A stretch of DNA of 64,000 nt from assembly GCA_039630415.1 (NCBI GenBank), contig JBCNVB010000003.1, forward strand, positions 52,962 through 116,961, given 5' to 3'. Within the stretch, counting starts at the first letter, position 1; every line of letters begins with the position of its first letter. Shown here one piece after another: positions 36,501 to 39,500 of this stretch. The DNA is from a bacterium. GTDB taxonomy: Bacteria > DRYD01. The position numbers were made by a program.

Positions 36501-39500
36501 TAACCCATTCAGGAGAGAACTTTTCAAAATCATCTAAATCTATTGACTCTATTAGTTTTGAGTATTTTTTGGATGTTCTAGTTTTATGAATATACTCAGT
36601 TAGTATGGAGATTTGTTTACCTCTATATTTAGCTGATTTGGGATTCATACATACTCTATCATCCCAAAAGAGCAAACTAAGGGTATATTCATAATAAGCC
36701 AGATGTTGATTTATTTTTAGTAGCTGTTTGTAAGATTTGATTGAATTTTTATTCATAAGTACCTCCTTCTATTTTTTGAACTCTCTAAAAAGAGCTTACT
36801 AAAATTCTTCAACTTTTGTTTACTGGCTCCTGCAAACTAAAAGGGTAAGATCTAAAATTTAAAGAATATTATCCTAGTAAGCTCTATAATATGCAATTAG
36901 TTTTCTCAAAAGATCAAATAAAGCAAGCGATTCAAAAAATAGCGGATCAAGTGTCTGAATATCTCGAACAAGTCCAAGAAGATGTGCATTTTGTAACTGT
37001 ATTAAGAGAAGGAATACACTTTTCAATTGATTTAGCACAAAAACTGGAAAAATATAGCCTTATATTTGATTATATCTTCCTAGAAAATGTTAACCCAAAT
37101 AATAGAGAATTAGCAATCGAAAAAGATATATTTTTACCCGTTAAGGATAAAACAGTTTTGCTCTGCTCAGTTTTAATAAGAACAGGATATGAAATCAGTT
37201 TTATAGAAAACTACTTGAGAATAAGAGGATGTAAGCAAATAAAAACTGTTTCCCTTATCTGTAAAAAAGGAGCTTACAAGAAACCCGATTTCTACTACTT
37301 CTTAACAGAACCCTCTGATTACCTCGTAGGATATGGACTAGATTACAATGAAAAATACAGAAATTTACAGGAAATATACAAAATAAAGTAATGCTTTTCC
37401 TGTTGGATACTTTTAGTATTCTTTACCGGCTGTTTTATGCTCTTCCTGAACTGAGCCATAATAATCTAAACTTGAACTCTATCTATGGATTAACTAGAGT
37501 ACTTATAAAAATAACTAAAGAGTACAAAGTGGAATACCTAACTTTCTGTGTTGATAAAGGAAGATCTGGTAGGGATAAAATACAACAAACATATAAGTCT
37601 GATCGTGTCTCTACACCAGATAAGTTTAAACAACAAATACCAATATTTTACGAACTATCAAAAGCTTCTAAAATTAGTATACTCGCTATAGAAGGAATGG
37701 AAGCAGATGATACAATCTACACCATCTCCAATCTCTTTAAAAAAGAAATCAAAATATACATAATCACTGGTGATAGTGATTTACTACAAGCAATAGACGA
37801 CAATGTTACTGTACTTTTAATGAAAAAAGGTATATCAGATATCGAGGTTTTTGATAAGATTAACTTCACTAAAAAATACGGATTTGATAGTTCACTTTAC
37901 ATATATTATAAAGCACTCGTAGGAGATCAAGCTGATAATATTAAAGGAGTAAAGGGTATAGGACCTAAAAAAGCTTTGAATATAATAAAATCAATCGAAA
38001 ATCCTTCTGATATACCTAAACACCTAGATTCCCAACAATTGGAAATATTTAATCATAACTGCCAAATAATACAATTGAAAAACTCTCCAGATAGAATAAA
38101 CCTGTCTTTAGAGAAGCTGAAAATAGATAGGCAGTGGTATAAAAACAAAGATTTTGTTGATTTTCTTCGTAAGTATAATTTTAGGAGTATTTTAAAAGAA
38201 ATAGGTGTAGAGGATGTACAAATGAAGTTATTTGGGTAGGGGAGGGATGGCCGAGCGGTCGAAGGCGGTGGTCTCGAAAACCACAGTGGAGTTATCACTC
38301 CACCGGGGGTTCGAATCCCCCTCCCTCCGAATAATACCATGGATATTATACAAATCAACAAACTAATCGATACCTGGAAACAACAACTCTCCAAAAATGA
38401 TAACTACCTCATCCTCAAAACAATACAAGAAATAATTAACGTATTCAATAAACTAGAACAACGACAAAAAACAACTTTTCTTAACATCTTTAAAGATATA
38501 CAAAAAAAGGTTTTTAGTCAAGTCTATTCTAATGATCCATTAATTAGAAGAAATGTCGTTATACTTGCCAGTACTTTAGAATCAAACGATATAGTTCTTG
38601 ATGTTCTCAGGTATCTCAAAGTTGAAAAAGACTATGAAAATTTGATAACTTATCTCAGATATCTCGAAAAGTTTAAATCTGTCGGTTTTATAGATAGCTT
38701 AAGTGACTATGCTTTTAATCATTCTTTACCTTTACCAATTAAAATCAGAGTTATATCGATTATAACTTCCATCCTACCTCTCTACAAAGGTAACCAACAA
38801 ATAATTAACAAAATCTTCGACAATATTTCGGAAATTATCAATGATCCTAATAATCAAGCTTATATAGTAATCTACTATGATAATCTCATTTCAGAAACGA
38901 TGGACTACTATACCAATAAAAATCAGCCTAAAGTCGTATCAATTTTCTGCGAGTTATATGACAGTTTGATCATTAGAACTATGGATTTAATAAAACAAAT
39001 AATGAAAGATAAAGTTAAAGAAACGCAAGCTGAGTTAATAGCTGCTTGTATAATATTCTTACTTTTGGCTAAAGCATTACTTGAAAAAATGAATTACAAG
39101 GGTTTTTCATATGAACATTATCAAGACGAAAATATCAAATATTTATTGATCAAAACTATAGGACAATGTGGTGAGCTCTTCAAATTCATGATTAACTTCT
39201 CTGATAAGTACAATTTAACAAATGAAATAGGACAGATTATTAACCAATTAGGTTTGTCAGAATATTTGGTTGAGTTACTATCTAACTCTAATCCAAGGCA
39301 AAAAAAAGATATCTTAAAGTTTTTATATACCTTTGGAATAAAGTTAAGCCAAGATGAATTGAAAACCATCGCAGATTTATGTAAGCATGATTTTGATGAA
39401 GATATTATTAGTGTTTGCCTAGATATATTTGATCATAATCACTACTATGAAGATTTACACTACTTTTCAAAGTACTCTTCTTCTTTCAGTTATCAATTGA

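Follow-up and report, generated by a model that had tools for sequence, protein, structure and literature searches.

A stand-alone Pol I-type flap endonuclease with a clamp-type tail accompanies DnaE, the apparent sole DNA polymerase, in Calescibacterota

Maturation of the bacterial lagging strand relies, in textbook accounts, on Pol I. Two C-family polymerases, PolC and DnaE3, are usual in Tenericutes, and the DnaE of Bacillus subtilis is of the DnaE3 type. Among 3070 complete genomes compared, Pol I-less species carrying stand-alone flap endonucleases (solo FENs) were described among Tenericutes, part of the Verrucomicrobia and small-genome symbionts, and the loss of Y-family polymerases was noted in thermophilic phyla (Timinskas et al., NAR 2026, PMC12926913). 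B. subtilis can do without the polymerase part of Pol I but not without the 5' nuclease (PMC13082043, PMC10191290); its Okazaki fragments are matured by DnaE and FEN, and cells deleted for polA come close to the wild type (PMC13082043). The base pattern, that is, a Pol I-less genome with a solo FEN and a polymerase-dead PolX, was published between 2022 and 2026, and the Calescibacterota described here therefore represent a new phylum-level case of it, an extreme one that combines an apparent DnaE-only state with reverse gyrase.

Calescibacterota is an uncultivated bacterial phylum of hot springs. The window analyzed here is a stretch of 64,000 nucleotides from one of its genomes (G000; 1,404,407 bases, 31 contigs, 89.24% complete). 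Counts refer to 11 draft genomes of the phylum (71-90% complete, 20-280 contigs, none closed) spanning three genera (g1, g2 and g3), and extra family searches were performed on a subset of five genomes that covers all three genera. Our own ORF call on G000, with a minimum length of 80 aa, yielded 1324 ORFs, 389 of them at least 400 aa long. Reverse gyrase was present (TIGR01054, 787 bits; cut-off 472), which backs the description of the lineage as hyperthermophile in the earlier survey of this genome. The gene content, including a TCA cycle, NADH dehydrogenase, cytochrome bd, ATP synthase, and flagellar and pilus genes, is consistent with a free-living habit, judged on gene content only.

Like the Pol I-less species of PMC12926913, the phylum is without a family A polymerase and has a solo homologue of the Pol I 5'-3' exonuclease, by which the essential role is presumably filled; it differs in that the apparent loss extends over a whole uncultivated reverse-gyrase phylum and every non-C family at once. 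The string 'Calescibacter' occurred 0 times in the part of the PMC12926913 supplement that was searched, and T. acidiphilum stands in its genome list with one DnaE1 row. B. subtilis without Pol I (DnaE, FenA/YpcP, RNase HIII) offers the same division of labor, in which a C-family polymerase fills gaps or displaces the strand while a discrete FEN cuts the flap (PMC13082043, PMC10191290, Fukushima et al. 2007). There, however, the route is a back-up beside Pol I, PolC, DnaE, PolX and Y polymerases, whereas in Calescibacterota it would be the sole route.

The intact ORF at the locus (Table 1) encodes the 282-aa stand-alone FEN that the survey had named, and both Pfam domains scored above cut-off (PF02739: 5.2e-39, 134 bits, cut-off 34.3; PF01367: 1.9e-12, 47.9 bits, cut-off 40). 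Among NCBIfam models, those for Pol I matched best, over no more than their first ~280 positions (187 bits; cut-off 720), and the 5' nuclease domains of the Pol I structures 6VDE and 1TAQ matched at 5.2e-33 and 8e-23, the same values as obtained previously (5e-33 and 8e-23). Identity to the FEN of G004 came to 56% in place of the 54% given before. The PIN-like domain contains the carboxylates D6, D55, E104, D106, D107, D128 and D130, and Taq Pol I D18, E117, D119, D120, D142 and D144 are HMMER-aligned counterparts of the FEN acidic residues. The acidic residues from D6 to D130, together with D179 and D182 of the H3TH domain, are what we take to be the metal ligands of both metal sites. All nine were invariant in 10 of 10 aligned phylum FENs, as were G186 and G189-G191 of the H3TH domain among phylum FENs. 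The FEN frames measured 282-345 aa in 11/11 genomes and are therefore never fused to a polymerase.

In a tree rooted on E. coli Xni, the phylum FENs formed one clade (SH-aLRT 89; 96 if one other solo FEN is included) placed among the N-domains of Pol I and far from Xni. The closest full-length relative was the Pol I of Anaerocellum/Caldicellulosiruptor at 39% identity, and no nearer fused form was found among 185 longer matches. A profile search of genome contigs demonstrated, among the 72 matches listed, 68 Pol I N-domains that were fused or running on and four solo FENs. Two other assignments were ruled out: Pol I itself (PolA1), as the ORF ends at residue 282, a tRNA comes next and PF00476 matched in 0/11 genomes; and the Xni/ExoIX class, as NF007017 gave 66.5 bits (cut-off 261) and Xni lies outside the phylum clade in the tree. 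With no A-family polymerase and an active-type site in a stand-alone FEN, the locus fits the pattern of Pol I-less species with solo FENs. By its sequence, the protein descends from the 5' nuclease domain of Pol I and is a putatively active enzyme that stands alone.

Table 1. Features at the FEN locus, given as positions in the window, and the PolX-like protein encoded elsewhere in the genome
Feature	Position	Strand	Remarks
Hypoxanthine-phosphoribosyltransferase-like (HGPRT-like) gene	36891..37391	+	Upstream of FEN; PF00156 2.7e-10
FEN, stand-alone Pol I-type 5'-3' exonuclease / flap endonuclease	37391..38239	+	282 aa, then TAG stop; PF02739 and PF01367
PIN-like nuclease domain	37394..37882	+	FEN residues 2-164; PF02739
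H3TH / SAM-fold DNA-binding domain	37895..38107	+	FEN residues 169-239; PF01367; D179, D182, GVKGIG
QMKLFG hexapeptide, beta-clamp-binding-type motif (Qxx[LF]F)	38219..38236	+	Extreme C-terminus of FEN
tRNA-Ser(CGA)	38241..38329	+	ARAGORN; starts 2 bases past the FEN stop codon
405-aa ORF, helical-repeat-looking	38339..39556	+	Downstream neighbor of FEN
PolX-like protein	G000 contig C10		588 aa; PHP half conserved, polymerase half degenerate

The codons at the end of the FEN gene read CAA ATG AAG TTA TTT GGG TAG. The sequence Q[LMA][KR][LF]F(G) formed the C-terminal end of FEN in 11/11 phylum genomes; Q277 and F281 were invariant in 16/16 aligned rows, while the linker before the motif varied by an insertion of 0-45 aa. 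The beta-clamp consensus is quoted as QxxLF in PMC12926913, and FEN shows what is expected of a beta-clamp client, namely a QL[SD]LF-like terminal pentapeptide conserved among orthologues. Clamp-type tails were found on two of the 1324 ORFs of the G000 proteome. A scan of 11 other replication and repair proteins of G000, including DnaE, MutS, MutL, LigA and the PolX-like protein, yielded no strict Q[LMIV]x[LMIF]F, and hence no organism-specific motif from known clients against which the tail could be calibrated.

Complex prediction was performed with DnaN and FEN residues 236-282 and gave an ipSAE of 0.60 (runs 0.57, 0.66 and 0.60; at least 60% of contacts agreed between runs, and partner pLDDT was at least 52), whereas two partner-swap controls and one clamp-swap control all gave 0.00. 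Of 157 solved complexes, 116 reach the pass mark, as do 2 of 215 mismatched pairs; only 18 of the 157 solved complexes, and both passing mismatches, score at or below 0.60. The prediction, which listed no individual contacts, weakly supports a possible binding of the tail in the hydrophobic cleft of the beta clamp DnaN. Solved clamp-peptide complexes exist, and the pass of the DnaN-FEN pair may stem from likeness to these.

Similar tails were observed outside the phylum: eight of 27 non-phylum matches had one, as had 23 of another 59 proteins that consist of FEN only and measure 270-345 aa. The carriers included solo FENs of CPR groups (Peribacteria, Gracilibacteria) and of the cultured thermophile Thermodesulfobium, whose 296-aa FEN ends in QKKLFS. 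When the tail was compared with the presence of Pol I in five genomes (three Pol I-less, two Bacilli), two Pol I-less CPR genomes had a clamp-type FEN tail, and the extra FENs of the two Pol I-positive Bacilli had none. The Qxx[LF]F tail was also missing from E. coli Xni/ExoIX, likewise a small stand-alone member of the FEN superfamily, which differs further in lying on another branch and in coexisting with Pol I. Our literature searches, together with term searches of the main text of PMC12926913 and of PMC10191290, found no bacterial solo FEN reported to carry a clamp-binding motif, and the phylum-wide clamp-type tail is, within the literature searched, a new feature.

Another reading of the tail is a serious contender, though we consider it the less probable one: the tail may be no clamp hook at all, but a remnant of the linker between the domains of Pol I, or a site that touches another partner, for example SSB, DnaE or LigA, with FEN acting untethered. 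A motif of five residues is short and occurs by chance, as the two tails among 1324 demonstrate; the complex prediction gave weak support; and the B. subtilis FenA is thought to act untethered, with the clamp unmentioned, by term search, in the FenA paper (PMC10191290). However, the motif kept to the extreme C-terminus in every phylum genome across a linker of changing length, it recurred on unrelated solo FENs, it was missing from the FENs of the two Pol I-positive Bacilli and from Xni, and the signal vanished in all swap controls. These points argue for a clamp-binding tail.

As a clamp-held enzyme, FEN would differ from FEN1 in several ways, since FEN1 binds the PCNA trimer through a PIP box (consensus QxxLxxFF), whereas the Calescibacterota protein belongs to the bacterial Pol I-type branch and is predicted to bind the beta dimer through QxxLF. 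The two have in common a C-terminal clamp peptide behind a flexible linker, as described for FEN1 on PCNA in archaea and eukaryotes (PMC3321178, PMC1636371). FEN would share a single sliding clamp with the replicative polymerase and the ligase, as a counterpart of FEN1 in bacteria.

The absence of Pol I from 11 genomes, as claimed by the survey, was reproduced by profile search: family A (PF00476) matched in 0/11 phylum genomes, and in 10 of 14 control genomes, which were all 10 bacteria among them. Families B (PF00136) and Y (PF00817, above cut-off), formerly reported missing from five genomes, were missing from all 11; two chance-level PF00817 matches (E ~0.05, 13-14 bits) lay inside 706- and 836-aa frames. 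Two gaps named earlier, PrimPol and DnaQ in relatives, were also addressed. PrimPol (PF09250) was found in 0/5 genomes and AEP primase (PF01896) in 0/5; a DnaQ-type protein of the RNase_T family was missing from G000, G007 and G010 but present in genus g2, the only genus with it among the five genomes searched. Reverse transcriptases were sporadic (2/5 genomes, G007 and G003) and none was found in G000. The PolX palm (PF14792) was above cut-off in 0/11 genomes, with two weak matches, one in G008 (107-aa frame, 22.3 bits) and one in G009 (12.9 bits).

DnaE (PF07733) was detected in 11/11 phylum genomes, with a single strong match in each, and FEN (PF02739) in 11/11. The same-genome controls were DnaN (10/11), RNase HII (5/5) and LigA (5/5). 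Calescibacterota thus appear to be without the non-C polymerase families, and DnaE would be the sole DNA polymerase, because families A, B, Y, PrimPol and AEP are missing and the polymerase site of PolX is apparently dead (see below). On this gene inventory, the phylum has putatively lost all of Pol I except the 5' nuclease domain, which is kept as a separate gene.

A Pfam scan of all 389 G000 ORFs of at least 400 aa identified a polymerase catalytic domain in exactly one, DnaE; ORFs below 400 aa were covered by the named family searches. Gaps could also be filled by an unrecognized polymerase, either of a new family or too divergent for the profiles. Room for it exists among the 37 of 389 ORFs that had no Pfam match at E<=0.01, 36 of which had no NCBIfam match either and about 13 of which look cytoplasmic in a crude hydropathy scan, and among the smaller ORFs, which lie outside the whole-set scan. 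We nevertheless consider such an enzyme improbable: 67 G000 ORFs without a Pfam match at E<=0.01 were rescanned and gave not even a weak polymerase-like match, and genetics in B. subtilis and other bacteria indicates that none is needed if FEN is present (PMC12926913, PMC13082043). Individual candidates were also set aside. For a 1034-aa ORF, an embedding search points to BNR/sialidase propellers (a lead only), and eight other unassigned ORFs showed, by eye, helical repeats, coiled coils, Zn ribbons or a HAD-like N-terminus.

The one DnaE of G000 was found again at C18:53482-56907, with 1279 bits against NF004226 (cut-off 1002). The structures closest to it by sequence were Taq alpha (2HPI, 1.5e-73) and M. 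tuberculosis DnaE1, and the polymerase motifs PDIDTDF and KMDFLG were present in G000. The PHP signature HHDHEHCDH occurred in 8/8 phylum DnaEs examined and conforms to the active-PHP definition HHDHEH[C/H]DH (PMC12926913, Fig. 7 legend). Identity between the G000 and G004 proteins was 72% over 1054 aa, a correction to the 68% reported before. Judged by these signatures, the enzyme is a DnaE1-type Pol III alpha in which both the PHP proofreading signature and the polymerase Asp triad are intact; the type and the active-type PHP set it apart from the DnaE of B. subtilis.

A PolX-like protein was found in 5/5 genomes searched. In G000 the sequence match was limited to the PHP half (residues 310-584, 1.1e-24), Pfam detected PHP alone (PF02811, 1.4e-10), and NF006375 matched at positions 293-569 with 155 bits. 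In family f1 of these proteins, EEIC, ENIC or NEIT stands in place of GDxD and the segment with the third Asp is missing, so that of the carboxylate sites the first is E or N, the second C or T, and the third deleted. In the well-conserved homologue of G010, GDLD has become RNLD and VDL has become VRI, leaving N, D and R at the three sites. The survey's description of a PolX homologue without catalytic carboxylates therefore holds in substance, the sites being substituted or deleted, and is slightly too strong in its wording, as a Glu remains at the first Asp position in G000. The homologue is, by these substitutions, a putative PHP nuclease without a working polymerase site. Noncanonical prokaryotic PolX proteins likewise combine a conserved PHP site with substituted polymerase carboxylates (Prostova et al. 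NAR 2022; PMC12926913), and family f1 differs from them in a polymerase half beyond sequence recognition and in the deletion of part of the palm.

That this protein is still a polymerase, one that uses non-canonical ligands and replaces Pol I in gap filling, seems very improbable to us. The presence of the gene in every genome tested, the Glu of G000, and the enrichment of PolX in thermophiles (PMC12926913) would suit such a role, as would the whole-length model of the G000 protein, which is best matched by bacterial PolX (3AUO, E 1.3e-18, ~640 alignment columns). In the same model, however, the palm region has a pLDDT below 50 while the PHP part has 80-95; the sequence and Pfam matches are confined to the PHP half, the second and third sites are lost in f1 and two of three are Asn and Arg in G010, and noncanonical PolXs of this sort were reported to be polymerase-inactive exonucleases (Prostova et al. 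2022, cited in PMC12926913).

To the last alternative, that polA or a Y or B polymerase is present in the organisms and was lost from the drafts by assembly or binning, we give almost no credence: all 11 genomes are incomplete drafts, an oddly composed island could drop out of every bin, and the universal gene DnaN was missed in 1/11, so single gene losses do occur, but the gene was missing in 11 genomes across three genera (chance ~1.6e-9 if losses are independent, which binning losses may not be), DnaE and FEN were each recovered in all, FEN is intact with its own stop followed by a tRNA rather than a truncated polA at a contig end, and the G000 contigs are compositionally uniform (30-33% GC).

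The explanation that we strongly favor is that FEN is a Pol I-derived stand-alone nuclease, that DnaE is the only polymerase, and that primers would be removed by a clamp-held FEN together with RNase HII, Pol III and LigA. It builds on gene presence and absence, on the conservation of active site and motif, and on the descent of FEN; all biochemical steps and the clamp contact are ones that we infer. RNase HII would cut the primer RNA, Pol III on the beta clamp would extend into the downstream fragment, the remaining RNA or flap would be taken off by FEN, probably held on site by its C-terminal Qx[KR][LF]F tail docked in the beta clamp, and the nick would be sealed by the NAD-dependent LigA. 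Replication would fall to DnaE, and so would the filling of Okazaki gaps and the DNA synthesis that completes UvrABC, MutSL and base-excision repair. The family absences, with FEN and DnaE in 11/11 genomes, lend support to the earlier proposal that Okazaki-fragment maturation and repair synthesis run without Pol I in this lineage.

A broader proposition appears to us evenly balanced: that the whole phylum would run all DNA synthesis on Pol III, from replication and Okazaki maturation to excision and mismatch repair, enabled by a FEN turned beta-clamp client beside DnaE, and that the same tail on solo FENs of further lineages, apparently also Pol I-less, suggests a general route to the loss of Pol I. 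If true, this would amount to a bacterial re-invention of the toolbelt of PCNA, Pol delta and FEN1 on one clamp ring, and a clamp-tailed FEN would be a general way in which bacteria dispense with Pol I. Some bacteria, as recent work shows, can do without the polymerase of Pol I, and here a reverse-gyrase lineage, apparently free-living, would live on DnaE alone. The result would be a natural minimal set consisting of a single polymerase whose PHP proofreader is built in, a single FEN, RNase HII and LigA, with no translesion polymerase despite the UvrABC, MutSL and photolyase genes that are carried. It raises the questions of whether a Pol III holoenzyme can do all gap filling at high temperature and whether a clamp-tethered FEN makes Pol I dispensable. 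A thermostable FEN-clamp pair might be a convenient reconstitution system.

The order of HGPRT, FEN, tRNA-Ser and the 405-aa ORF was conserved inside g1 only and gave no functional clue. The 405-aa ORF had no Pfam family at E<=0.01 and no NCBIfam family, was kept downstream of FEN within g1 only (6/6), and is probably unrelated to FEN function. The HGPRT-like gene scored 95.5 bits against TIGR01203, under the cut-off of 150; its stop codon overlaps the FEN start in TAATG, and it adjoins FEN in five of the six other g1 genomes and in none of g2 and g3. The tRNA-Ser(CGA) lay 3' of FEN in 6/6 other g1 genomes and in 0/4 genomes of g2 and g3.

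Six-frame profile searches were performed on 11 Calescibacterota genomes (three genera, two families, 71-90% complete), including the source genome G000 (1.40 Mb in 31 contigs, 89.24% complete, 1.65% contaminated). No match to DNA polymerases of family A (PF00476) or family B (PF00136) was obtained in any of the 11, and neither family Y (PF00817; two chance-level matches, E ~0.05) nor the PolX palm (PF14792) exceeded its cut-off in any of them. DnaE gave a single strong match in each genome, the stand-alone Pol I-type 5'-3' exonuclease (FEN) was present in all 11 as open frames of 282-345 aa, and DnaN was found in 10. 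The survey's finding that families A, B and Y are missing, which for B and Y had covered five genomes, now extends to 11. If Pol I were present and randomly lost, the chance of missing it in every genome would be ~1.6e-9, a figure that presumes independent losses, which binning need not respect. PrimPol, primase, reverse transcriptase, RNase H and ligase were searched in five genomes spanning all three genera: PrimPol, a gap the survey had named, archaeo-eukaryotic primase and RNase HI were found in none, and RNase HII and an NAD-dependent ligase in all five. Reverse transcriptases were found in two of the five, G007 (438 aa, L111) and G003 (394 aa, L112), and not in G000; they are probably retroelements or parts of defence systems.

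The ORF call for G000 yielded 1324 ORFs of at least 80 aa, and all 389 ORFs of at least 400 aa were run through Pfam (E<=1e-6 for part, E<=1e-8 for the rest). Exactly one carried a DNA polymerase catalytic domain, namely DnaE, as the survey had it. The same scan recovered replication proteins (DnaA, DnaB, DnaG, DnaX, gyrase, topoisomerase I and LigA), repair and recombination proteins (UvrA, UvrB, UvrC, UvrD, Mfd, MutS, MutL and MutS2), and RecG, RecJ, RadA, SbcC and a photolyase. A polymerase of a family so far unrecognised may be present, since 67 ORFs had no match at these thresholds and 37 of them had no Pfam match at all on a rescan at E<=0.01, but nothing was found that points to one: the rescan gave no polymerase-like match among the 67, NCBIfam named one of the 37 (PilT-like), a 1034-aa ORF resembled BNR propellers by embedding (a lead only), and eight others appeared, on inspection by eye, to be repeat, Zn-ribbon, coiled-coil or HAD-like proteins. 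Some 13 of the 37 look cytoplasmic in a crude hydropathy analysis. Every polymerase family except C appears to have been removed, at least in genus g1, to which G000 belongs.

The photolyase occurs in an organism without a translesion polymerase, and light repair may be relevant in its habitat. The scan of G000 ORFs brought no PriA-type gene to notice; a basic protein that matches no family and has a CxxC Zn-ribbon cluster near its C-terminus lies ~8.7 kb upstream of dnaG and could, speculatively, be the remnant of one.

Features of the FEN locus and of related genomes
Feature	Location	Strand	Remarks
FEN	window 37391-38239	+	282 codons, uninterrupted (ORF call)
HGPRT-like gene		+	upstream of FEN; stop overlaps FEN start
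tRNA-Ser(CGA)			downstream of FEN; begins 2 bases past FEN stop
DnaE	G000 C18:53482-56907		1141 aa; PHP, alpha, finger, HhH and OB domains (Pfam)
PolX homologue of G010	L024:612-2378	-	full-length PolX model match
Reverse gyrase	G000 C14, L079:4-3342	-	1113 aa; TIGR01054, 787 bits vs cut-off 472
Photolyase	G000 C4, L045:15774-17087	-	PF00875 + PF03441
Zn-ribbon protein	G000 C5, L054:6441-7961	+	507 aa
Acetyl-CoA-synthetase-like gene and leucyl-tRNA synthetase, two pairs	window 57520-61886; G000 C8, L061:6346-10762
PF09820 + PF08011 paralogues	L047:3648-5219; L074:1-1527, 2005-3300; L099:1-1512, 1564-3081
Further PF09820 + PF08011 paralogues	L106:4-1383, 1437-2945, 3190-4704; L109:17190-18710

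The FEN gene lies in DNA of 30-35% GC. Both PF02739 (N-terminal resolvase-like domain of 5'-3' exonucleases, 5.2e-39) and PF01367 (H3TH/SAM-fold domain, 1.9e-12) exceeded the curated Pfam cut-offs. At 187 and 180 bits, the first ~280 positions of two Pol I equivalog models were the top NCBIfam matches, ahead of models for stand-alone 5'-3' exonucleases at 142 bits or less; Xni was rejected, its model reaching just 66.5 bits against a cut-off of 261. The best solved-structure matches were Pol I 5' nuclease domains (6VDE, 5.2e-33; Taq, 5e-23 to 8e-23), in line with the survey's description of a 282-aa stand-alone exonuclease. Because its start overlaps the preceding stop codon (TAATG) and its TAG stop is followed by the tRNA, FEN is a complete, separately terminated unit, and the same features rule out a truncated polA. 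Residues D6, D55, E104, D106, D107, D128, D130, D179 and D182 were invariant in all 10 aligned phylum orthologues and, in the structure-match alignment, face acidic residues of the Taq enzyme; we take these nine to be metal ligands. Judged by sequence, the active-type site is intact.

Close relatives of FEN were labelled Candidatus Calescibacterium sp. (53-57% identity). Solo FENs from beyond the phylum were at best 34-37% identical (143 bits) and the best full-length Pol I relatives, from Anaerocellum and Caldicellulosiruptor, 39% identical (153 bits), with no closer fused form among 185 longer matches. A tree of 102 rows (from 176, 74 being dropped by an 80% identity filter) was inferred by a fast LG+G4 search, with E. 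coli Xni as the root. The 15 phylum rows formed one clade (SH-aLRT 89; 96 with one other solo FEN added) nested among Pol I N-terminal domains; its sister group cannot be named, given the weak support along the backbone and a sampling that favours the query. The simplest reading is that the Klenow part of Pol I was lost once, at or before the phylum root. Proteins P0019-P0027 (297 aa) are closely clustered FENs of bacterial type that share 34% identity with that of G000 and lack clamp-type tails; some are labelled Candidatus Pacearchaeota archaeon, and they could be misbinned, transferred or viral.

In all 11 phylum genomes FEN ends in Q[LMA][KR][LF]F, in some of them followed by a last G: QMKLFG in G000, QAKLFG in G010 (second family), and QLKLF, QMRLF, QLRLF or QLKFF elsewhere. 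Q277 and F281 were invariant in a 16-row alignment, and genus g2 has an insertion of 25-45 low-complexity residues directly before the motif, as is typical of short linear motifs carried on flexible tethers. The consensus for beta-clamp binding is QxxLF (PMC12926913). The motif ends two of the 1324 G000 ORFs, with ~2 expected by chance; since it is not rare by itself, the argument rests on its conservation. Outside the phylum, similar tails were seen on 8 of 27 solo FENs in a first search (among them Thermodesulfobium QKKLFS and Gracilibacteria QMGLF, QGSLF and QTSLFG) and, in a profile search, on 23 of another 59 FEN-only proteins (270-345 aa); many of those without the tail come from very short contigs and may be truncated Pol I genes. 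E. coli Xni has no such tail. In a five-genome test, PF00476 was missing from two CPR genomes whose solo FENs have clamp-type tails and from a further Calescibacterota-like genome, and two Bacilli with Pol I had an extra FEN without the tail.

Complex prediction was performed with G000 DnaN and FEN residues 236-282, both as alignments, beside three controls. The pair reached an ipSAE of 0.60 (runs 0.57, 0.66 and 0.60; best control 0.00), which counts as weak support; the runs shared at least 60% of contacts, and partner pLDDT was at least 52. Of 157 solved complexes 116 reach the mark it passed, as do 2 of 215 mismatched pairs, with 18 of the 157 and both of those mismatched pairs at 0.60 or below; the pass may reflect likeness, because clamp-peptide complexes have already been solved. 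The conserved motif, weakly backed by the modelling, suggests that FEN may ride on the beta clamp via its C-terminal tail.

In two proteins from Gracilibacteria MAGs (P0038 and P0039, 414 aa) a FEN domain is joined to a 3'-5' exonuclease domain of the Pol I type (PF01612). With no polymerase domain and SQTSLFG at the end, they resemble a Pol I that lacks its polymerase part and bears a clamp-type tail. In Thermodesulfobium, a cultured thermophile with a complete genome, a FEN-only protein (P0028, with relatives P0166 and P0167; 296 aa) is annotated 'DNA polymerase-1' and ends in QKKLFS (T. acidiphilum) or ILKKLFN (the relatives P0166 and P0167).

A ~590-aa protein matching the bacterial PolX model was present in five of five genomes tested. 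The G010 match exceeded its cut-off (466 bits; 4e-111 to T. thermophilus PolX), and alignment with the T. thermophilus enzyme revealed RNLD for GDLD and Arg for the Asp of VDL, placing Asn and Arg at two of three catalytic Asp positions. In family f1, including G000, the sole recognisable PolX part is the PHP half (residues 310-584, 1.1e-24; Pfam reports PHP only); a five-way alignment shows EEIC, ENIC or NEIT in place of GDxD and a deletion of the segment that holds the third Asp. The G010 protein represents an initial step of the decay that f1 shows. The survey had called the homologue devoid of catalytic carboxylates; the site is indeed degenerate, but G000 keeps a Glu at the first Asp position. 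In an AlphaFold model (mean pLDDT 67) the PHP domain is confident, the N-terminus is helical and the palm falls below 50; the model's best structural matches, which span its whole length, are bacterial PolX (3AUO, E 1.3e-18, TM ~0.47). Sequence and model identify the protein as a PolX descendant, most probably acting as a PHP nuclease alone, consistent with published noncanonical PolXs of this kind (Prostova 2022, as cited in PMC12926913); substitutions in the polymerase site are found in about one in four PolX1 proteins (PMC12926913).

G000 DnaE scored 1279 bits on the DnaE1-type model NF004226 (cut-off 1002) and contains the polymerase motifs PDIDTDF and KMDFLG. Its PHP domain is closest to those of Thermus aquaticus alpha (2HPI, 1.5e-73) and M. 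tuberculosis DnaE1, and the nine-residue signature HHDHEHCDH, of a type that marks a PHP as 'active' (PMC12926913), was intact in all eight phylum DnaEs examined. Profile searches of five genomes, closing another gap named by the survey, found an RNase_T/DnaQ-type protein in G002 and G003 only (genus g2) and none in G000, G007 or G010. Because the signature is intact and no DnaQ-type protein was found in genus g1, the PHP domain of DnaE is most likely the proofreader there.

By analogy with the genetics and biochemistry of Pol I-deficient bacteria, primers would be incised by RNase HII, the upstream fragment extended and the gap filled by Pol III holoenzyme, leftover ribonucleotides or a displaced flap removed by FEN, possibly held on the beta clamp by its tail, and the nick sealed by LigA. 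Resynthesis after UvrABC-UvrD and MutS-MutL excision would fall to the same polymerase.

Among 3070 complete bacterial genomes, Timinskas et al. (NAR 2026, PMC12926913) found family A polymerases in 96%; Pol I-less species, notably Tenericutes and Verrucomicrobia, carry solo FEN, and only five tiny endosymbionts have neither. In B. subtilis, DnaE displaces strands and, together with FEN, matures Okazaki fragments, and cells deleted for polA are close to wild type (preprint PMC13082043). The phylum is therefore a new case of a pattern already described. The pattern here spans an entire uncultivated phylum with reverse gyrase; 'Calescibacter' does not occur in the part of the PMC12926913 supplement examined. 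A clamp-type tail on solo FEN is not mentioned in the main text of PMC12926913, and literature searches at the level of listings found no report of one in bacteria; for mycobacterial Pol I a recent preprint does describe a motif that binds the clamp, but it lies in the Klenow fragment. What goes beyond the published pattern is its phylum-wide extent together with reverse gyrase, the restriction to family C, at least in genus g1, and the clamp-type FEN tail; the DnaE-only complement with this tail is a variant worth a bench test.

Although the G000 genome has ~32% GC, its reverse gyrase speaks for growth at very high temperature, as expected of the hyperthermophile the survey had proposed. An acetyl-CoA-synthetase-like gene followed by leucyl-tRNA synthetase occurs as two separate pairs in this 1.4-Mb genome, which could reflect a segmental duplication, a second strain or bin contamination. 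At least nine paralogues of ~500 aa, often in tandem, combine a predicted AAA-ATPase (PF09820) with a PD-(D/E)XK nuclease (PF08011), a striking expansion for a small genome.
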